Below, piece after piece: positions 12,601 to 61,944 of a stretch of DNA of 64,000 nt (within the stretch, counting starts at the first letter, position 1; every line of letters starts with the position of its first letter). The stretch is from assembly GCA_964016885.1 (NCBI GenBank), contig OZ024741.1, forward strand, positions 342,860,001 to 342,924,000. Direction: 5' to 3'. Under the pieces are notes generated by a model that worked only from the letters and a program-made list of their open reading frames with translations, did no database searches and had not been told where the DNA came from. Made by a program: the position numbers and the translations under genes. The stretch comes from Eledone cirrhosa. Taxonomy: Eukaryota.

Positions 12601-12951
12601 CTTCCTTTTCTTCGTTTTGTCTTTCTTTCTTTTTTCTCTCTTTCTTTCTCTCTGTATAAATTTTCACTGCTAGCGTAAACCTCTTCAAATGAAGTCGGTG
12701 TTTATTACGGTATGTCGAATCTATTTATCTATAAAACTGTTTATATTGTATTTTGTCTGATGAAGGCATAGCATATTGTTAATATGATATCCCCGAAATA
12801 TATATAATGAAATAAATATGGTTTTATAAATATAGTTTTCCATTTATTTAATATTGTAAATATACTCCAAGTATTTGTCGAGTGCTTTTATATCAGTTAT
12901 AAATATTTACTAGTTGTAACCCAACAATTTTAAATATAACTTTACATGTAT
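12601..12951 (+). repeat. 5' pseudo-LTR of the PLE
   Basis: Matches 16491-16841 (offset 3890), no differences seen by eye. Confidence 0.92.
12749..12814 (+). ncRNA. Type-I hammerhead ribozyme (family A)
   Basis: tattttgt-CTGATGA-stem II hairpin-GAAA-tatata-TA^-atgaaata. Confidence 0.85.
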
Positions 12952-12994: not shown

Positions 12995-13332
12995 ATGGGA
13001 TTCTTTAAGATTACTTCCACTTAAAAGACATACCTCTACCTAGAAACAAAGACTTTGTAAAACAATTAATAGATAAATCTGACTCTTTTATAAGGAGAAT
13101 CAGGTAGCGTGCATTCCACTTTGATAAATCTAATGCAGACGAAAATATCTCGGACTTAAACAAAGTTTTCAAATCTAAAAGAAATCCACCCCCTAACAAA
13201 CTTTTATCTGACTTTGAAAACGATATAATTTCTATCATACAAGGGGTCAAATTCAAGAGAAACTTTAAAGGCCAGGAATATCTGAAAGGCATTAAGGATA
13301 ACATTGAGAGCTTAGAGAAAACTGAGAAGATC
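12995..13332 (+). pseudogene. Disrupted N-terminus of the PLE ORF
   Basis: ATG at 12995 (MGFFKI), a 1-nt frameshift near 13012, then LKDIPLPRN...IRRIR*RAF in frame with 13333; TAG at 13105-13107 replaces a conserved Trp. Confidence 0.75.
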
Positions 13333-15207
13333 TTGATGAAATCTGACAAGACCAACAACCTCTATGGAGTGCGGAAAGACATGTATAATGGCCTCATACT
13401 GAAAGAGCTGAGGAAAAAGTACAAGGTAGCAGATAAGGCCGAACTTGAGAAAATGAATGTCGAAGCATCTTGTATAATGCACGAGTTGGAAATTGAGAAC
13501 AGAACACAACCTTTCGTGCCCAGGAAACCGAAGATCAATATGAAGGACCACAAGAGGAATTTTGAAAATGACCTGCCAGTTAGATTGATCGCACCTTCAA
13601 AATCGGACCTGGGCAAATTAAGCAAAAACATTCTTGACAGGGTGATACAGCAAATTAAGAACTTGGATTGTGTATCTAACCTGAGCTTGTGGAAGGGAAC
13701 TGGAGAGGTTGTTGAGTGGTTTAGGCAAATTAAATATAACAATAATAATAGGTTTATTCAACTTGATATAGCTAACTATTATTCTTCTATTACCCCTAGT
13801 CTACTAAATAAGGCACTAAATTACGCATTCAAACATACTGACCTAACTAGCAAAGAAATGCATATTATATTATCGGCTAGGAAAACTTTGATAGAATTTA
13901 ATGACAAATTATGGATCAGAGCAGATAGAGATAGCAATTTTGACATAACTATGGGATCTTCCGACTCAGCTCAGGTAACTGACCTTGTGGGCTTATTTTT
14001 AATCAATTCGCTACATAGGAAAATACCTGGTACTACCGGAGGTTTATATAGGGATGACATGCTTTTACTTATTAATAATAATAACCCTGAACTAAATAGA
14101 AAATGTAAACAAATTACAAATTTTTTTAATTACTTTAACCTTAAAATAGAAATTGAGAACAACCATAGAATAGTCAATTTCCTAGATATAACATTAAATC
14201 TCAACACATGTCTCCACTATCCTTTTCACAAGTTGAATGAAAACTTAAACTATGTCAACTTTAACTCTAACCACCCCAGATCTGTCAAAAACACTATAGT
14301 AAACTCAGTCCAAAAACGTAACTCTAGGATCTCGTCGAATAGAAAGATTTTTAACGAAAAGGCCCAGTACTATAATGATGCACTAGCTAGGGCAGGATAT
14401 GCTGATAAGATTGTGTACATAGATAATGATAGACAAACTAAACAAAGTAACAACTTTTTTAATTACGGCAACAACATTAACAACTATAATAGAAAGCATT
14501 ACAATAATTCCAAAGGACAAAAAAGAAATAGAACTAGGAACATAATTTGGTTTGCCCCCCCTTTCTCACTAAACATTAAAACCCACATCGCTAAATTATT
14601 TTTCAAAGCTCTTGATAATCGCTTCCCTAGAACACATAGGTATCACTCAATCTTCAATAGGCATACAATTAAATTAACCTACTCATCCACCAAAAATTTA
14701 GCACAAAATATTAATAGAATAAATAATAGGAACTTAAAACCTACTGATAATAGCATAAATAATATACAAGTTAACAAATGTAACTGTAGAGATAGATCTA
14801 AATGTCCGTTAAATAACAACTGCTTAGTTAAAAATATAGTATACAATTGTAATGTTAATACTGACTCTAATTCTTTTAACTACGTCGGTTCCACATCGAC
14901 GGAATTTAAACTTCGCTATAATAACCACAAGAATTCTTTCACAGATCCAAGTAAAAAATCTTCAACGGCACTATCAGGCGTACTCTGGCAACTTAAGCTA
15001 GATAACGTTAGATATTCGACGGCTTGGAATATAGTCTCAAGAGGGATTCCTTTTAATTCATCCTCTGAGACATGTGACCTCTGCGCAGAGGAGATATTCT
15101 TTATACTAAAATCTAAAAATTCCCTTAACCTACGAACAAATTTATTCAGTTGTTGCAAACATAGATTAAACTCAACGTTTAAATATAAATTTAAATTTAA
15201 AATGTAG
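13333..15207 (+). CDS. PLE reverse transcriptase + GIY-YIG endonuclease (N-terminally disrupted)
   Basis: SDKTNN, QLDIANYYSSI, FDITMGSSDSAQVTDLVG, GLYRDD, NFLDITL, SNHP, CNCRDRSKCPLNNNC, VYNC..YVGST..FKLRYNNH, CDLCAEE, CCKH. Confidence 0.93.
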   Translation: MMKSDKTNNLYGVRKDMYNGLILKELRKKYKVADKAELEKMNVEASCIMHELEIENRTQPFVPRKPKINMKDHKRNFENDLPVRLIAPSKSDLGKLSKNILDRVIQQIKNLDCVSNLSLWKGTGEVVEWFRQIKYNNNNRFIQLDIANYYSSITPSLLNKALNYAFKHTDLTSKEMHIILSARKTLIEFNDKLWIRADRDSNFDITMGSSDSAQVTDLVGLFLINSLHRKIPGTTGGLYRDDMLLLINNNNPELNRKCKQITNFFNYFNLKIEIENNHRIVNFLDITLNLNTCLHYPFHKLNENLNYVNFNSNHPRSVKNTIVNSVQKRNSRISSNRKIFNEKAQYYNDALARAGYADKIVYIDNDRQTKQSNNFFNYGNNINNYNRKHYNNSKGQKRNRTRNIIWFAPPFSLNIKTHIAKLFFKALDNRFPRTHRYHSIFNRHTIKLTYSSTKNLAQNINRINNRNLKPTDNSINNIQVNKCNCRDRSKCPLNNNCLVKNIVYNCNVNTDSNSFNYVGSTSTEFKLRYNNHKNSFTDPSKKSSTALSGVLWQLKLDNVRYSTAWNIVSRGIPFNSSSETCDLCAEEIFFILKSKNSLNLRTNLFSCCKHRLNSTFKYKFKFKM

Positions 15208-16490: not shown

Positions 16491-16832
16491 CTTCCTTTTC
16501 TTCGTTTTGTCTTTCTTTCTTTTTTCTCTCTTTCTTTCTCTCTGTATAAATTTTCACTGCTAGCGTAAACCTCTTCAAATGAAGTCGGTGTTTATTACGG
16601 TATGTCGAATCTATTTATCTATAAAACTGTTTATATTGTATTTTGTCTGATGAAGGCATAGCATATTGTTAATATGATATCCCCGAAATATATATAATGA
16701 AATAAATATGGTTTTATAAATATAGTTTTCCATTTATTTAATATTGTAAATATACTCCAAGTATTTGTCGAGTGCTTTTATATCAGTTATAAATATTTAC
16801 TAGTTGTAACCCAACAATTTTAAATATAACTT

Positions 16833-16841
<9 letters not shown>
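16491..16841 (+). repeat. 3' pseudo-LTR of the PLE
   Basis: Direct repeat of 12601-12951, followed by (TA)n. Confidence 0.92.
16639..16704 (+). ncRNA. Type-I hammerhead ribozyme (family A, 3' pLTR copy)
   Basis: Same motif as 12749-12814. Confidence 0.85.
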
Positions 16842-16921
<80 letters not shown>

Positions 16922-16929
<8 letters not shown>

Positions 16930-17340
16930 AGATCAAAAGATGGTTAAAGGAGTTCCATGTATTTTATTATGCGCATTTCAAAAACAAACATCATCATGCA
17001 ATAATATTTGTGTTTTCATCAGATAAAACAGGAGAACATGATATGAAGGCTAAAAAACACTTGTGGATAGTGCAGTTTTAAATCAACATATGTTGATTTA
17101 AAACTGCACTATCCACAAGTGTTTTTTAGCCTTCATATCATGTTCTCCTGTTTTATCTGATGAAAACACAAATATTATTGCATGATGATGTTTGTTTTTG
17201 AAATGCGCATAATAAAATACATGGAACTCCTTTAACCATCTTTTGATCTTATATTATGTATACTCCAGTCCTACAAACTGTAGAGTGCTTCTTATCCGAT
17301 ATCTGCATTGCTTTATTGTACTACAATAAAACTCACCTCC

Positions 17341-18109: not shown

Positions 18110-19006
<897 letters not shown>

Positions 19007-23931: not shown

Positions 23932-24146
23932 AAGTATGTTTATTGAAAGAAACATAATATTAATACAAAAAGTCTGTTTGGGAACAGGTTTTGAATTGAC
24001 CAATAGAAAAGTTAGAGGTCAAGTTGATAGAATAACCGTAGTAGAAACTTTATGTTAGGAGTAGAGGAATGTAAATTTATGCTTTGAATGAAAAGAAAGG
24101 GGAAGAGAAAGGTAGGGGTTAAAATGAGGTCAAGTTAATGAGATAG

Positions 24147-24672
24147 TGATATTAATAAATGGAAACTATATTTATAAAACCATATTTATTCTATTATATA
24201 TATTTCAAGGGTACCAAAACTTTGGTGCGCTCTAATCAGATAAAATACAAAGTTTGTTTTATAAATATTAACATATCCAGGAAGGAGATCTTAACGGTTC
24301 AAGTTTTTCCTGGATAAGGAAAGAGGGGAAAGAGAGGAAAAGTAAAATATTTCAAATTATTAAGATGAATATGCAAATGAGGTTGAGATATAGGGCTGAA
24401 AAAAGACGTTATTTTTAGACGCTAGTTAGATTTAAATAATTATTAGGATATATATATATATGTAGGAAGAAGAAAGAACCGTTAAGATCTCCTTCCTGGA
24501 TATGTCAATATCTATAAAACAACTTTGTATTGTATCTGATGAGAGCGCACCAAAGTTTTGGTACCCTTGAAATATATATAATAGAATAAATATGGTTTTA
24601 TAAATATAGTTTCCATTTATTAATATCACTGATATTATACTCCAGAAAACTTGTCGACTGCTTCGAATCAGT

Positions 24673-24680
<8 letters not shown>
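24147..24680 (+). mobile_element. PLE pLTR family A variant, inverted pair (~24147-24300 / ~24476-24628)
   Basis: Homologous to the 12601-12951 pLTR; 3' end abuts (TA)n. Confidence 0.8.
24528..24588 (+). ncRNA. Type-I hammerhead (family A variant)
   Basis: tattgtat-CTGATGA-gagcgcaccaaagttttggtaccctt-GAAA-tatata-TA^-atagaata. Confidence 0.75.
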
Positions 24681-24754
<74 letters not shown>

Positions 24755-25094
24755 CATACATATATACATACACGCATACATACATACATATATATATATG
24801 TTTGTATGCATAGTGGGTTGTGTAGTCGTTGTCGTTGCGTGCAGTCCTGGACAGTGTTATGTAAGTGGACTGAGAGAGAAGAAATAGTCATGACGTAAGA
24901 GGAATGAACTATAGGGAGCTGAAAGAAAGAAATTAGAACAAATAAACGAGCTAAAATTTGTTTAAGACTGTAAACGTGTTTTTGTTTTATTGTTCATTTC
25001 GGTAAACATAGAAGTGTAGCTGGTGTGTGTATGAGAGTTACTGTTAGAATTAAAAATAGAATTTAGATTGGAATTAAAATTAGGATTAATACAA

Positions 25095-33513: not shown

Positions 33514-33524
33514 TATATATGCCG

Positions 33525-33740
33525 AGGCGTGTGGCTGAGTGGCTAGAGAATTGGATTCGCAATCGTGAGGTTGTGAGTTCGATTCCCGCACCGGGCGATC
33601 CGCTATGTCCTTAAGCAAGACACTTTATTTTACGTTGCCGCTTCTACCTGGAGTTGCGACCGATAGTTAGTATTAGCAACTGAAAAGACCAATGAAAACA
33701 TTGTTTGCTCGGTCCGATTTGACGAAAGTCGATCATTCCC
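33525..33740 (+). mobile_element. SINE family B (short variant)
   Basis: gtggctgagtggctag box A, gagttcgattccc box B; matches 52233-52450. Confidence 0.85.
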
Positions 33741-33749
33741 TATATATAT

Positions 33750-33941
33750 TATAAATGTAAGCTATCGCCGTATTTTGACTAAAGAAATTAAAGAAAATTA
33801 AAGAAAAGATGTGGGTTCGACTCCCATGTACGTCAATACTCATCTTTTTCCATTTCTCCGAGGGTTATTAACCCCACTATCAGGCTAAATAATTTTCTTT
33901 AATTTCTTTAGTCAAAATACGGCGATAGCTTACATTTATAA
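33750..33941 (+). mobile_element. Family H (tRNA-containing unit) fragment with inverted ends
   Basis: 33750-33800 is the reverse complement of 33890-33941; contains the T-arm gtgggttcgactcccat. Confidence 0.75.
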
Positions 33942-33952
33942 AACAAATTTAG

Positions 33953-34017
33953 TATTTTATCTGATGAAAGCACACCAAGGTTAGCTTGGTTGTTCTTGAA
34001 ATATATATAATAAAATA
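33953..34017 (+). ncRNA. Type-I hammerhead (family A variant) in pLTR fragment ~33942-34150
   Basis: tattttat-CTGATGA-aagcacaccaagg...cttggttgttctt-GAAA-tatata-TA^-ataaaata. Confidence 0.85.
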
Positions 34018-34157
34018 AATATGGTTTTATAGATATAGTTTCCATTTATTTAATATCATGGAGTATTTACTCCAGTTATCTGTTGAGTGCTCTAAATCAG
34101 TTATAAACATTTACGTTTGTCGGAATTCCAACAAATTAAATACAACTTCTACACACA

Positions 34158-37242: not shown

Positions 37243-37688
<446 letters not shown>

Positions 37689-39808: not shown

Positions 39809-39840
<32 letters not shown>

Positions 39841-40532
39841 CAAGTAAGTATGTTTTGAAACAGTGAGCAGGTTTGAAATTAGAAAATAGAATAGCTTTCA
39901 CCGTATTTTTGACTAAAGGAATTTTAGCCTAATAATGGGGTTTAGAACCCTCAGATAAATGGAAAAAGATGAGTGTTGACGTACATGGGAGTCGAACCCA
40001 GATCTTTGGTTATCGCGACTACTGTGCTACCATTACACCAACACATCACCCATCTCCTTCCATTCAAATTAGAAGCTACATTCTTAGTGAGTTTAAATGG
40101 CAAGTAAGTATGTTTTGAAACAGTGAGCAGGTTTGAAATTAGAAAATAGAATAGCTTTCACCGTATTTTTTATGTGGGTTCGACTCCCATGTAGGTCAAT
40201 ACTCATCTTTTTCCATTTATCTGAGGGTTCTAAACCCCATTATCAGAGGGTTCTAAACCCCATTACAGGCTAAAATTCCTTTAGTCAAAAATACGGTGAA
40301 AGCTATTCTATTTTCTAATTTGAAACCTGCTCACTGTTTCAAAACATACTTACTTGCCATTTAAACTCGCTAAGAATGTAGCTTCTAATTTGAATGGAAG
40401 GAGATGGGTGATGTGTTGGTGTAATGGTAGCACAGTGGTCGCGATAACCAAAGATGTGGGTTCGACTCCCATGTACGTCAATACTCATCTTTTTCCATTT
40501 ATCTGAGGGTTCTAAACCCCATTATCAGGCTA
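39841..40532. mobile_element. Family H: 260-bp tandem unit containing a tRNA-like cloverleaf, in inverted arrangement
   Basis: caagtaagtatg at 39841 and 40101; inverted copy 40172-40532; (TA)n on both sides. Confidence 0.85.
40410..40480 (+). other. tRNA-like cloverleaf (pseudo-tRNA) inside family H; mirror copy at 39977-40047 on the minus strand
   Basis: Acceptor gatgtgt/gtacgtc, D-arm gtgt-aatggta-gcac, anticodon loop cgcgata (lacks U33), T-arm gtggg-ttcgact-cccat. Confidence 0.75.
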
Positions 40533-40549
40533 ATATATATATATATATA

Positions 40550-40990
40550 TATGCAAAAGTTCTATTTAAAATTGTTGGGTTACAACAAGTCAATATTTTT
40601 ATAACTGATATAAAGCACTCGACAAGTATTTGGAGTAGATATACGATATTAATAGATGGAACTATATTTATAAAACCATATTTATTTCATTATACATATT
40701 TCAGGGATACCAAATTAAATTATGGTATGTCTTCATCAGACAAAATACAATATATAATAGTTTTACAAATAAGCTTTGACGTACCCTTTTAAAATGCAAC
40801 CATTATCTATCCAGATGGCTTCCAAAAATAATGGTTGCATTTTAAAAGGGTACGTCAAAGCTTATTTGTAAAACTGTTATATATTGTATTTTGTCTGATG
40901 AAGGCATACCAAAATTTAATTTGGTATCCCTGAAATATGTATAATGAAATAAATATGGTTTTATAAATATAGTTTCCATATATTAATATC

Positions 40991-40991
<1 letters not shown>
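40550..40991. mobile_element. PLE pLTR family A foldback with hammerheads at 40683-40747 (-) and 40887-40951 (+)
   Basis: Homologous to 12601-12951; tattttgt-CTGATGA-aggcatacca...tggtatccct-GAAA-tatgta-TA^-atgaaata. Confidence 0.85.
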
Positions 40992-41065
<74 letters not shown>

Positions 41066-41136: not shown

Positions 41137-41684
41137 GAGGTCTGTCAGTAAAGTTCCAGGACTGATGTCACAAAACATCACGTCAGGCAGATGGTGCGTA
41201 GCGATCGTCGGCTGACTGTTCGACTGATGCCAAATGAGCTGGGCATGAATCGGGACAGCGTCTGGAAGATTCTTACTGAAGATTTGGGCATGCGGAAAGT
41301 CTGCGCGAAGATGGTGCCAAAACAGCTGAACGATGACCAGAAGGGTCGACGCATTCAAGTGTGCCAGGACATCCTCGAGCGCCATGAAACCGAACCAGAC
41401 TTGCTAGGGACAGTCATCACCGGAGATAAGTCATGGATCTTCGAGTACGACCCGGAGGGGACTCGTTTTGAAGACGTGGACGACATCAAAAAGGCCGTGA
41501 CGAAGGAACTGCGGAGGATCCCGGAAGAATCCTTCCAGGAATGCATGCAAGCGTGGCAGAAAAGGATGGAAAAGTGCATTAGACTCCAGGGGGATTACTT
41601 TGAAGGAGAAAACTCTTAGTGTGAAGTTTGGGTTTGAAATAAATCTTTTGTGACATCAGTCCTGGAACTTTTCTGACACACCTC

Positions 41685-41685
<1 letters not shown>
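41136..41685 (+). mobile_element. Internally deleted mariner transposon
   Basis: ~39-bp TIRs cgaggtctgtcag...cacaaaa / ttttgtg...gacacacctcg; TA TSD; remnant KMVPKQL, ITGDKSWIFEYDPE, GDYFE. Confidence 0.92.
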
Positions 41686-41738
<53 letters not shown>

Positions 41739-41938
41739 GCAACACACAAAAACAAGATGGTATATGTATATATTTCCCAAACCTCTCGTAGATTATTTAT
41801 ATGTTTTTCATGGTAGTGGTCTTATAACTCCTGTAACTGAAAACACACTCTCGTCTGTTTTTCCTCTCTATATTGTCTTTTGGAGTGCCCAGGAAATTCT
41901 TTTCCTAAGAGCTCATTAAATTACAGGGTTATACGCGA

Positions 41939-41995
<57 letters not shown>

Positions 41996-42502
41996 AGTTT
42001 GAAGAACAGTCAGACAAAATATATCCAATTTTTCTCCGTCTTAGTCCTTAGAAATCAACCAGATAAATAATCATTTAAACGGAGCTAAGTTTAAAATGTA
42101 ACTTTGAAGACATAACAGATAAATGTCACAGACCTTCTTCTGTGAGGAACAGTCAGATAAGATTTACCTAGTCTTTCCTCTTAGCCCGTAGAAATTAACT
42201 AGACAAATAATCACTTAAACGGAGCTAAGTTTAAAATGTAAATTTGAAGTAAAGTTCATATGCATTTTTTCTTCAAATTTACATTTAAAATTTCGCTCCG
42301 TTTAAGTGATTATTTGTCTAGTTAATTTCTACGGACTAAGAGGAAAGACTAGGTAAATCTTATCTGACTGTTCCTCACATATAGCTCTGATTAATAATTT
42401 TTTGCTTAATTAGTTTTTTCATAGAGTCACACGGTTGAAGGTGGCCACACTCATATATGTATCTGTGAGTATGTCTAAGTATATACATATATATCCTTAT
42501 GA

Positions 42503-42544
<42 letters not shown>

Positions 42545-43081
42545 AGTAAAGCAACGGAGTAAATTGAGTCACGTATAATCCTGTAATTCAATGAGCTCAA
42601 AGGAAAACATTTTCCTGGGCACTTCAAAATACAATACAGAAAGGAAAAACACAGGAGAGTGTGATTTCATTTACAGGGGGTATTAAGACCACTAGCATGA
42701 AAAACACATAAGCTACGAGAGGTTTGAGAAATACATTATAATTAAAAGGATGAATTAAAATGAAAAAAAACAACAACCTCATAACTAAATCCCTCATGTA
42801 CAGACTTACTAGGAGAATGTTTCACCATAAATTAGTGGGAACTAATTCAGCCGTATGGATCGTCAGCATGTGTTCAACCTATATGGCCTTCACTACTAAG
42901 GAGACATAATATAACTGATCTGTAGCACGTGTAAACGGGAAAAGAATGTGTGCGTGAGGCAGGGACTAGTGGTAGGAATAGAACAAGAAGCCGCTAGAAA
43001 TGGCAGCTTATAACCATTCAATTTATAGTGCTCGACAAGCAGAAACGCAAGGAACTAAACACACTCTTCTGTGCCTCCCTC

Positions 43082-46911: not shown

Positions 46912-46918
<7 letters not shown>

Positions 46919-47285
46919 ATTATTATGTAATAAACAACATAAGGCAATTATTCCATTTACCAGTGGTTTCTTAAAAGCAAAAGGTTTTGCTTTCAATCCT
47001 CAGAATGAAAAATCCTGGTTTGTTTATTGAATATGGATTCTAAAAAAAAAAATTTTTTTTTTTTTTTTTTTTTTTTGTTTTGTTTTTAGAATCCATATTC
47101 AATAAACAAACCAGGATTTTTCATTCTGAGGATTGAAAGCAAAACCTTTTGCTTTTAAGAAACCACTGGTAAATGGAATAATTGCCTTATGTTGTTTATT
47201 ACATAATAATAATAATTAAGCTCTGTTGCATACATAGAGCACTCTTTTTTCCTGGACTTTTCCGATGGAATTACTTCATTCACAC
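46912..47285 (+). mobile_element. Family F foldback with hammerheads at 46951-47010 (-) and 47119-47178 (+)
   Basis: tttcatt-CTGAGGA-ttgaaagcaaaaccttttgcttttaa-GAAA-ccactgg-TA^-aatggaa. Confidence 0.82.
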
Positions 47286-52085: not shown

Positions 52086-52232
52086 AAAACGGTGATCAGG
52101 ATGTTTAATTGAGAATCGATGACAGTACCAGCGAGATTTAAAGGAGGTAGTGGTAGACTCGATGTAATACCATTTCTGGTCGTTCGATTCAATATAAATA
52201 TATATACATATGAATATATATATATATTGTGA

Positions 52233-52450
52233 AGGCGTGTGGCTGTGTGGTTAGAGAATTGGATTCGCAATCGTAAGGTTGTGAGTACGATTCCTGGACC
52301 AGGTGATGCGTTATGTCCTTGAGCAAGACACTTTATTTCACGTTGCTCCTTCTACCTGGAGTTGCGACCGATAGATAGTATTAGCAATTGGAAAGACAAA
52401 CGGAAACATTGTTCCCTCGGTCCGATTTGACGAAAGTCGATCGTTCCTTT
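52233..52450 (+). mobile_element. SINE family B (short variant)
   Basis: Matches 33525-33740. Confidence 0.85.
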
Positions 52451-53479: not shown

Positions 53480-53667
53480 ACGAAGGAAGTGTGGTAAGGA
53501 TACAGGTGAACCATAACGCACCAGAGTACTCGATACTTAGGACTTAGGGCAGTAGAGTGGGTAATAAGAAAAGAGTCAGGACCCCGACGGCTGAGTTCCA
53601 GCCGTTTCGACAGCTAGCTGTCGAAACGGCTGGAGCTCAGCCGTTGGGGTCCTGACTCTTTTCCTAT
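53480..53667 (-). mobile_element. Family G PLE-type end with palindrome 53564-53667
   Basis: Centre gacagctagctgtc; contains the 3' half of a hammerhead (GAAA-cggctg...cagccg-T). Confidence 0.7.
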
Positions 53668-54765: not shown

Positions 54766-54927
54766 CAAGAGAGAGAGCAAGAGAGAGGGAGAGAGTGTCT
54801 GCGTGTGTTTGTGTGTTCCTACATTATCATATATTATCATAGATGTATTTTTATGCGATGCATGCGCGTTTAAATATTTATACATGTATCTATATAATAT
54901 ATGTATCAATATCAATATACGTATATA

Positions 54928-55880
54928 CGAGGTGTGTCAGAAAGGTTACAGGACTGATGTCACAAAAGATTTATTTCAAACCCAAACTTCACACTAAGAG
55001 TTTTCTCCTTCAAAGTAATCCCCTTGGAGTCTAATGCACTTTTCCATCCTTTTCTGCCACGCTTGCATGCATTCCTGGAAGGATTCTTCCGGGATCCTCC
55101 GCAGTTCCTTCGTCACGGCCTTTTTGATGTCATCCACGTCTTCAAAACGAGTCCCCTCCGGGTCGTACTCGAAGATCCATGACTTATCACCGGTGATGAC
55201 TGTCCCTAGCAAGTCTGATTCGGTTTCATGGCGCTCGAGGATGTCCTGGCACACTTGTATGCGTCGATTCTTCTGGTCATCGTTCAGCTGTTTTGGCACC
55301 ATTGCGCAGACTTTCCGCATGTCCAAATCTTCAATGAGAATCTTCCAGACGCTGTCCCGATTTATGCCCAGCTCATTTGCCATCAGTCGAACAGTCAGCC
55401 GACGATCGCTACGCACCATCTGCCTGACGCGCTCAACGTTGACCTCAGTCTTGGTTGTTGAGGGCCTTTCGCTCCTGGGCTCATCTTCCATACCTTCGCG
55501 TCCTTCTTTAAACCTCTTGCACCACTCAAAAACACGTGAGCGTGACATCGTCTCATCTCCATACACTTGCTGCAGCAATCCCAGTGCTTGTGACGGAGTT
55601 TTCAAGTTTATTTTTTGCTCTGTGCTCATTGCTTGACGACCTAAAACAGAGGACATGTATATAAAATTATGAAGAAAAAAGTTTGATCGCTACAGAGAGC
55701 TAAGCTTACAGTTACATACTCCAGGAGGGATTACTTTGAAGGAGAAAACTCTTGGTGTGAAGTTTGGGTTTGAAATAAATCTTTTCTGACATCAGTCCTG
55801 GAACCTTTCTGACACACCTCGTATATACGTATATTGATATTGATACATATATTATACTGGAACTTTTCTGACCCACCTCG
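54928..55880 (-). mobile_element. Internally deleted mariner, same family as 41136-41685; truncated transposase ORF 54994-55656
   Basis: HTH region VYGDETMSRSRVFEWCKRFKEGRE, MVPKQL, ITGDKSWIFEYDPE; TIRs with TA flanks. Confidence 0.9.
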
Positions 55881-61269: not shown

Positions 61270-61935
61270 ATATATAAATAAAAGGCAGAGTTAATAACTC
61301 ATATTGATACCCTGTAATTAACAAGCCCAAAGTATAAATACTGAGCATTATATAATAATATATGTAGTAATAGACACAGTAAATTGTATGTCTAACATTA
61401 CGAGGGTTGAAATACCACGTTGGTTTGACAAATTTAACCTGAAGCAGACGGAAATACAGAAAATATACTGACCGTCTCAATAACTATTACAACACCCGGA
61501 CAGATTAGAGATCTAATCTGTTTCGCCCTGAGTTATTAACTCTGTCTTTTATTTGTATTTCGGCTCCCTACTAGGTGAGCTTATAAGTTGGGTGTATTAA
61601 GGCTATTGTTTCTAGCCTATCCACTCACACCACTTTTGACTTCTGGCGCACGAAATGAAATGTTCATTCTTGTGGCTTTTAGCTTTAGGTGTTTGTCACA
61701 TTTAATCTAATTCTCTCGCTGATGATGCCCACGAATTATCTATCTGTTACAAACACAATTCTCATGGTGAAACAGATTAGATCTCCAATCTGTCCGGGAG
61801 ATGTAATAGTTATTGAGACGGTCAGTATATTTTCTGTATTTCCGTCTGTTTCAGGTTAAATTTGTCAAACCAACGTGTTATTTCAACCCTCGTAATTTTA
61901 GACACACGATTTACTGTGTTTATTACTATATATAT
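61270..61935 (+). mobile_element. PLE-type pLTR foldback (arms ~61360-61525 / 61770-61935)
   Basis: Inverted homology seen directly; lies between (TA)n tracts. Confidence 0.75.
61713..61800 (+). ncRNA. Type-I hammerhead with a stable stem III and GUC site
   Basis: ctctcg-CTGATGA-tgcc...tggt-GAAA-cagatt-agatctcc-aatctg-TC^-cgggag. Confidence 0.75.
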
Positions 61936-61944
61936 ATATATATG

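Follow-up and report, generated by a model that had tools for sequence, protein, structure and literature searches.

A non-coding repeat of Eledone cirrhosa combines a tRNA-like head with the insertion signature of Penelope-like elements

We report a high-copy, non-coding repeat in the genome of Eledone cirrhosa that bears the insertion signature of Penelope-like elements (PLEs) and carries a tRNA-like sequence as its head. Taken together, the evidence makes it quite likely that this repeat is copied by a Penelope enzyme and transcribed by RNA polymerase III (Pol III) from the tRNA-like head. The high-copy, tRNA-bearing unit is real, since a 21-mer taken from it has 758 exact matches genome-wide whereas its reversed control has none, which excludes chance, and this tRNA-bearing form of non-autonomous PLE is new to the literature that we searched. 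The unit was noticed in a stretch of 64,000 nucleotides of contig OZ024741.1 (assembly GCA_964016885.1, positions 342,860,001 to 342,924,000 of the forward strand), hereafter the window. A reading made from these letters, the sequence-only reading, had proposed that a 260-bp unit in partial tandem plus inverted arrangement within (TA)n at 39841-40532 inserts with Penelope architecture.

Comparing the window with itself bore out this arrangement. The period is 260, positions 39841-39910 and 40101-40170 being 100% identical, and a minus arm (39841-40170) stands head-to-head with a plus arm (40172-40532), 39921-40170 matching 40536-40287 at 97% identity. Monomer positions m1-m260 are those of the reverse complement of window 39841-40100 (tRNA sense), in which the tRNA runs from m54 (G1) to m124, A58 is m109 and a run of five T residues (T5) occupies m134-138; in the tRNA-bearing plus copy, the window position equals m + 40356. 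The features of this insertion and of its two relatives in the window are the following.

33750-33941, no strand: subfamily B insertion, a short inverted arm and an arm beginning just upstream of the T arm
37378-37651, no strand: subfamily B insertion, its arms meeting head-to-head in the T-stem CATG (37532-37535), with one long and one short end
39813-39840, no strand: (TA)n target, left side
39841-40170, minus: left arm, 1.27 units, outward 3' end at 39841 (long end class, m260)
39977-40047, minus: tRNA-like sequence of the left arm (Rfam RF00005, 29.1 bits)
40172-40532, plus: right arm, partial tandem, 5'-truncated at m98, its end at ~m177 atypically short
40217-40265, plus: 23-bp local duplication, private to the window copy
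40301-40321, plus: short 3'-end class (m205-225), putative first internal reverse transcriptase (RT) start, from the 3'-end histogram
40346-40368, plus: long 3'-end class (m250-272), putative second RT start, within a weak predicted hairpin
40392-40409, plus: clamp 5' arm, 18 bp, a near-inverted copy of the tRNA trailer
40410-40480, plus: tRNA-like head, G1 at 40410 (ARAGORN, Rfam, subfamily conservation)
40417-40428, plus: A box, 11 nt of it identical to host tRNA-Gln genes
40459-40469, plus: B box and T loop, A58 at 40465 forming the edge of the main 5'-breakpoint cluster
40483-40500, plus: clamp 3' arm, including the T5 run at 40490-40494, which resembles a Pol III terminator
40533-40552, no strand: (TA)n target, right side

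The two relatives, already recognised as such, belong to subfamily B (unit 271 nt), which is ~83% identical to subfamily A (unit 260 nt), and both are without the 5' half of the tRNA. The 3' end CTTG followed by TA, read at 39841 and 37378 as a conserved terminus, is real, but it is one of two end classes and not a single fixed end. A search of 3.0 Gb of genome gave 758 exact-word matches for the A box, 1659 for subfamily A and 2199 for subfamily B, every reversed control giving 0; as one insertion often yields two exact-word matches, the copy number lies in the low thousands. The repeat also occurs in contigs under four other organism labels (6, 11, 7 and 742 examined; three studies). Two of these four labels share the inverted junction at the T arm, and in the run richest in the repeat the alignments often break at the clamp edge.

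PLE insertions carry a tail of 30-40 bp at one end, as described in the available text of Craig 2021 (PMC8557442). According to that of Frangieh 2024 (PMC11167929), this tail is the distance between two internal RT starts, the target is AT-rich DNA cut on both strands, and hammerhead cleavage is dispensable for insertion in vitro. We examined 128 deduplicated insertions on contig C1, 75 of subfamily A and 53 of subfamily B, taken in position order from the 100 listed A places and the first 66 of 100 listed B places. Two arms lay head-to-head with their 3' ends outward in 87 of the 128, while 41 were single arms, and 187 of 215 outward 3' ends adjoined (TA)n. The 3' ends form two classes ~40 nt apart (m195-230 and m250-272), and 76 of the 78 classifiable pairs combined one short with one long end, where 50% would be expected (p ~1e-20; 9 of 87 pairs, with one end outside both classes, were left out of this count). 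The inner head-to-head junction differed from copy to copy. In the control, a hammerhead pLTR family of the same genome, all eight of eight distinct inverted pairs (among 30 loci) likewise had one short and one long end. An ordinary SINE family in the window gave no head-to-head pair in 15 matches; these lay outside (TA)n, and several had direct flanking repeats. The unit itself has no poly-A or short-repeat tail and no single fixed 3' end, its two end classes being internal. An internal segment between units, or an LTR layout of the PBS/PPT type, was not found, the ends being variable and asymmetric; target-site duplications (TSDs) would be invisible in the flanks, which are mostly (TA)n. The head-to-head arms, the (TA)n targets and the one-short/one-long tail all agree with Penelope architecture, and we are confident that a PLE mobilises the unit. 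The sequence-only reading had named beforehand the outcome that would speak against it, namely that most copies are 5'-tRNA-headed SINEs with TSDs and free of inverted or tandem structure; what we found instead were the 87 head-to-head insertions and 31 arms of at least one unit. The near-absolute pairing of end classes suggests that both priming events within an insertion are linked, a coupling that the in vitro work, in its available text (PMC11167929), did not show. Arms within an insertion had derived variants in common more often than arms of different insertions (45% vs 9% in subfamily A, 10% vs 1% in subfamily B); we rejected this as a sign of one RNA per insertion, because subfamily age explains the sharing equally.

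The full pseudo-tRNA with A and B boxes that had been read at 40410-40480 was recovered by two programs, ARAGORN (40409-40481) and Rfam (RF00005, 40410-40480, 41.2 bits against a gathering threshold of 29). Its placement in the interior of the unit, and not at a 5' head, holds for the DNA but probably not for the RNA, which, to judge by the breakpoints described below, preferentially begins at the first base of the tRNA. The flanking stem, first put at ~15 bp, is present and slightly longer, with 18 bp (40392-40409 with 40483-40500); we call it the clamp. Folding of the clamped region gave z = -3.72, with 1 of 200 shuffles as good, and the minimum-energy fold contained no clean cloverleaf. Subfamilies A and B differ at 5 of 109 positions in the tRNA and clamp against 30 of 149 elsewhere (p = 2e-4), and two of the three differences within the tRNA fall in the anticodon loop. 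Covariation in the cloverleaf or clamp was absent, with zero two-sided compensatory changes among 66 monomers; the changes between the clamp 5' arm and the trailer are mostly A to G with G-U pairing kept, and one clamp pair is broken in subfamily B. We infer that the clamp arose from an old inverted junction. Among the host tRNAs tested by A-box motif search, in which isotypes were only partly compared, tRNA-Gln is the closest, and a family-level tRNA search did not find a close parent of the head. Host tRNA genes were also met in clusters: ~29 tRNA-Gln-type A-box matches lie together at L324-L352 (G000:C1, 168.21-168.28 Mb), where the scanned loci are tRNA-Gln genes, one copy being called with a CTA anticodon, and L282 and L284 (G000:C1, ~243.65-243.68 Mb) are tRNA-Thr genes in a tandem cluster.

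It had further been suggested that a Pol III promoter and/or processing by RNase P or Z takes the place of a ribozyme. The Pol III part of this suggestion gains indirect support from the conservation of the tRNA and from the clustering of 5' ends at its first base, and we regard transcription by Pol III from the head as likely. The main difficulty for the Pol III model is the T5 run: it sits 10 nt after the tRNA, so most Pol III transcripts should end before the part needed for copying.

The strongest RNA-level signal, which the sequence-only reading did not foresee, is a stop at the T loop. When arms are read 3' to 5', the background rate of 5' stops is 0.003-0.006 per nt, and it rises to 0.059 per nt in a main cluster at m107-124 in the T loop (102 of 156 arms) and to 0.015 per nt in a second cluster at m45-62, around the tRNA 5' end (12 of 51 arms). 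The main cluster begins as a cliff: 116 of 169 anchored arms end at m108-123, ~7 of these 116 being mis-scored read-throughs, against 3 at m103-107. Its mode is a CATG palindrome at m114, and short templated repeats occur at several junctions. A simulation with uniform stops and best microhomology failed to produce a hot spot (0.0058 vs 0.007). Ends in the second cluster are most frequent at m53; a few fall at m46-51, and m28-45 has none. This cluster is the tRNA 5' end, made by a Pol III start or by RNase P, which are indistinguishable in these data. A pile-up at the RNase Z site, just after the discriminator base, was absent (0.0058 per nt vs 0.059 per nt at the T arm), and the RNase Z part of the suggestion gains no support. 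Apparent 5' ends at m94 and m87 proved to be artefacts, caused by self-complementarity in the T arm and by variation in the anticodon loop, ends at m94 being recoded to m114 in the counts, and apparent ends at m7-17 are subfamily differences.

Methylation of A58 (m1A58) halts reverse transcriptases one base 3' of A58 and leads to misreading on read-through, and polymerase theta joins DNA ends by microhomology within ~15 nt. A cDNA ending at m110 would thus be joined at m110-124, which matches the joins observed. For a test at the level of substitutions, we used a fixed 28-mer with 1161 exact matches and four other adenines as controls; a fifth (m95, 131 matches) was left out as a subfamily variant. 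Single substitutions at A58 numbered 40, compared to 14, 11, 21 and 26 at the controls, and A>T changes 19, compared to 8, 3, 6 and 8; the change rate was 3.3% at A58, which adjoins a CpG, and 0.9-2.2% at the controls. The excess has a pooled p of 8e-5 and p = 0.05 against the highest control, and was not seen among 135 local copies (4 changes). In one other organism, A58>T is found in 39 contigs at about a quarter of depth and may mark a subfamily there. Loss of A58 would also be expected to stay private to single arms, because it damages the B box. As a sign of m1A58, the substitution excess is suggestive only. With the position of the cliff, it leads us to lean, if modestly, towards m1A58 as the block to copying that produces the T-loop stop. 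In one copy, at L217 (~1109-1275), m99-114 are cleanly deleted between GATG and CATG, as though the copying enzyme had skipped the T arm.

Of the 156 arms extending as far as the T arm, ~39 continue past the head. Among the 31 arms of at least one unit in the 128 loci, four measure 604-615 nt and have a seamless unit junction. Arms that run past the head or exceed one unit imply templates that were multimers or circles. A search for a three-head pattern gave 26 matches, 14 of them in six loci of the tRNA-bearing family. The two largest arrays hold ~38 units (L354/L355, G000:C4, ~264.916-264.926 Mb) and ~10 units (L353, C4, ~61.010-61.012 Mb); both are satellite-like, lie inside one PLE-type insertion and have normal (TA)n 3' ends. 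Shared variants and block duplications (lags 7 and 9) among their units show that these two arrays grew in DNA, and we rejected a rolling-circle origin for them. Circular RNA, which the sequence-only reading had offered as one option, is not required, as long genomic arrays can supply multimeric RNA. Partial arrays of 7 and 3 units are near star-like, and successive units within long arms have 0-5 derived variants in common. The weak hairpin predicted around the long RT start needs bases of the next unit, and its completion by that unit would explain the retention of m1-53.

These observations can be joined in a cycle. Pol III would start at or just before the tRNA and read through the T5 run part of the time. 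The PLE protein would bind the 3' part of the RNA, nick (TA)n on both strands and start cDNA at the two internal sites; on RNAs with a tRNA-folded, A58-methylated head, the cDNA would stop at the T loop, a minority reaching the 5' end, and the two cDNA ends would be joined by microhomology within ~15 nt of the stop. For the roughly one quarter of arms that pass the head, the template would be a read-through multimer from a tandem copy or an array, and there the clamp would probably protect the inner tRNA. Only such multimer-templated arms would carry the 53 nt upstream of the head, and for this reason the tRNA looks interior. Tentatively, and with somewhat less than even confidence, we extend this to a Pol III parasite class of PLEs, the counterpart of SINEs among LINEs and of TRIMp3 among LTR elements: its RNA would resemble a tRNA closely enough for host enzymes to methylate it at A58, its thousands of copies would form a fossil record of RNA modification, and clamp-protected inner tRNA units, with multimers or circles free of any ribozyme, would sustain the lineage.

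Three other explanations deserve weighing. The one that survives best, although we think it unlikely, has RNase P (and Z) cutting multimers at each tRNA mimic, closure of the products into 260-nt circles and rolling-circle copying by the PLE enzyme, in effect a retrozyme with a tRNA for a hammerhead. Retrozymes do work in this way, according to the available text of PMC7229834, and circles would avoid the loss of one unit per round. The modal 5' end (m53/54) coincides with the RNase P site, but some ends, at m46-51, lie upstream of it, and the pile-up expected after the discriminator base is missing. The 31 long arms and the four seamless junctions would likewise follow from circles; the ~10- and ~38-unit arrays, however, grew in DNA and supply multimeric RNA themselves. 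We give still less credence to the tRNA being a passenger, a tRNA-derived piece picked up by a non-autonomous PLE whose transcripts come from Pol II read-through, with a T-arm hot spot due to RNA structure or a T-loop nuclease and with the tRNA neither a promoter nor a bearer of m1A58. The T5 run, which speaks against productive Pol III transcripts, and the lack of covariation would fit a passenger, as would a clamp that is a relic of an old inverted junction; yet the tRNA is the most conserved part of the unit even though its anticodon loop varies, and the second breakpoint cluster falls on its first base. Inverted joins are favoured at m114-122, where three 4-nt palindromes overlap, but microhomology alone failed to give the hot spot in the simulation, and the cliff stands in the loop and not at the stem base. 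That the unit is a SINE of the ordinary kind, dependent on LINEs, or a MITE (fold-back DNA element), sitting in microsatellites by chance, can be dismissed almost outright: the tRNA head and short length fit a SINE and many copies are near-perfect palindromes, but an A or repeat tail is lacking, the two variable end classes are asymmetric within the palindrome, the inner junction varies between copies, the window's ordinary SINE family shows none of these features in its 15 matches, and the architecture of the 128 loci, a sample from one chromosome, contradicts it.

The reading that we prefer, a repeat copied by a Penelope enzyme and transcribed by Pol III, calls for an enzyme but for no ribozyme. 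The absence of a canonical hammerhead, remarked upon from the start, stands by both motif scan and Rfam: the motif CTGANGA..GAAA has no match in the unit, while the same scan matches neighbouring Penelope pLTRs, and a search of a 2.4-unit copy against Rfam, with E up to 10, returned only the tRNA and weak miRNA-like hairpins, and no ribozyme. The nearest hammerhead look-alike words differ between subfamilies A and B. PLE machinery is present in the genome, as an ORF with RT and C-terminal GIY-YIG in a family ending in (TA)n. An autonomous partner did not emerge from 50 GIY-YIG loci, a subset of the 150 that were scored out of 10595 GIY-YIG candidates: the 3' part of the unit had no significant match among them (best E 0.4), nor did any of them show a Naiad-type ORF. 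One Neptune-like family has an 18-nt AT-rich match in its 3' UTR, which was rejected as chance (E 1.5, ~40 nt inside the end of that family). Long open PLE ORFs with RT, C-terminal GIY-YIG and an upstream Cys motif lie at L261 4809-7622 (minus), L262 2588-5119 (plus) and L263 1775-5062 (plus); by description we take them to be Neptune-like, and we consider them candidates for building an in vitro system. Chimeric insertions involving other PLE families are rare, with 1 clear case in the 41 single arms; at L113 a fragment of another family, which matches two GIY-YIG loci, forms the opposite arm.

The window is unusually rich in PLE-type inserts. A hammerhead Penelope pLTR family lies at 40553-40999 and recurs at 12701-12943, 16591-16923, 24145-24810 and 33934-34153; across the genome a 32-mer of it has 26,470 exact matches, and its tail, at ~83 nt, is double the usual 30-40. 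Further palindromic insertions lie at 16917-17262, 18378-18840, 41768-42736, 46913-47216, 53564-53667 and 61350-61943, some with hammerhead-like motifs. A tRNA-headed SINE-like family whose 3' end also adjoins (TA)n occurs at 33517-33740, at 52192-52447 and at L206. A 545-bp element, which by eye we take to be a Tc1/mariner-like fragment, is present in (TA)n as two 95%-identical copies (41181-41725 and 54885-55429), and a 699-codon open frame runs at 13108-15207 (plus).

No description of a tRNA-bearing PLE parasite was found in the available text of the literature searched (including PMC7761336 and Bonar 2026); a consensus may sit under another label in Repbase, Dfam, subscription papers, preprint supplements or the Bonar library, all outside the search. 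If our reading is true, it would bring to three the retroelement classes paired with a small-RNA promoter, and PLE parasites would need no hammerhead, which fits the dispensability of its cleavage in vitro (PMC11167929, available text). With its two mapped start sites, the 260-nt unit is a minimal template on which to study the unsolved PLE cycle, and, if the T-loop cliff is indeed m1A58, insertion breakpoints could be used to trace RNA modification. Repeats of this kind inflate counts of tRNA genes and have probably been entered as unclassified SINEs.

In four structural features, partial tandem, inverted truncated arm, tail and (TA)n target, the unit behaves like a non-autonomous PLE. tRNA-derived SINEs resemble it in having a tRNA head with A and B boxes; they depend on LINEs and carry a 3' tail and TSDs, and the unit, having no tail or fixed end, is not a classical SINE. 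Sm-alpha of Schistosoma is a tandem, tRNA-related, hammerhead-bearing repeat, and to our knowledge neither SINEs nor Sm-alpha show a PLE tail or inverted arms. Closer in structure are MRC1 and other non-autonomous Chlamys elements (PMC8557442), with pLTR-like partial tandems, head-to-tail multimers, an inverted 5'-truncated arm, a 30-40-bp tail and microsatellite targets, and the Naiads of the same source, which are without hammerheads and target (TA)n. Non-autonomous PLEs as presented there generally have 3' sequence in common with an autonomous family, whereas none was found for the unit among the 50 GIY-YIG loci, and the available text describes no tRNA-derived part, its sole mention of "tRNA" being selenocysteine. 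Animal non-LTR retrozymes (PMC7229834; Li, Clavereau and Pollet 2026, 10.64898/2026.07.22.740005) share with the unit a short, non-coding, AT-rich monomer (170-400 nt), dimers to long arrays and a proposed mobilisation by PLEs. In the available text of these sources, the defining features of retrozymes are a type I hammerhead and circular RNA, whereas the unit carries a tRNA head and is known here from DNA alone; because it has no hammerhead, it is not a retrozyme, and the word "tRNA" is absent from the accessible part of the preprint (10.64898/2026.07.22.740005). For a tRNA promoter inside a repeat, the closest analogue is TRIMp3, comprising Cassandra, Helenus and Ajax (Kojima 2024, PMC10886601). 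These elements too are non-autonomous and have a small-RNA-derived Pol III promoter inside the repeat and not at a free 5' end, and Helenus, like the unit, carries a non-decoding tRNA-like sequence. The unit, with no LTR, PBS or PPT, is nevertheless not a TRIMp3 element. The available text of Kojima 2024 leaves Penelope unmentioned, and TRIMp3 are LTR elements with PBS, PPT and TSDs of 4-5 bp, whereas the unit shows the integration of a PLE.
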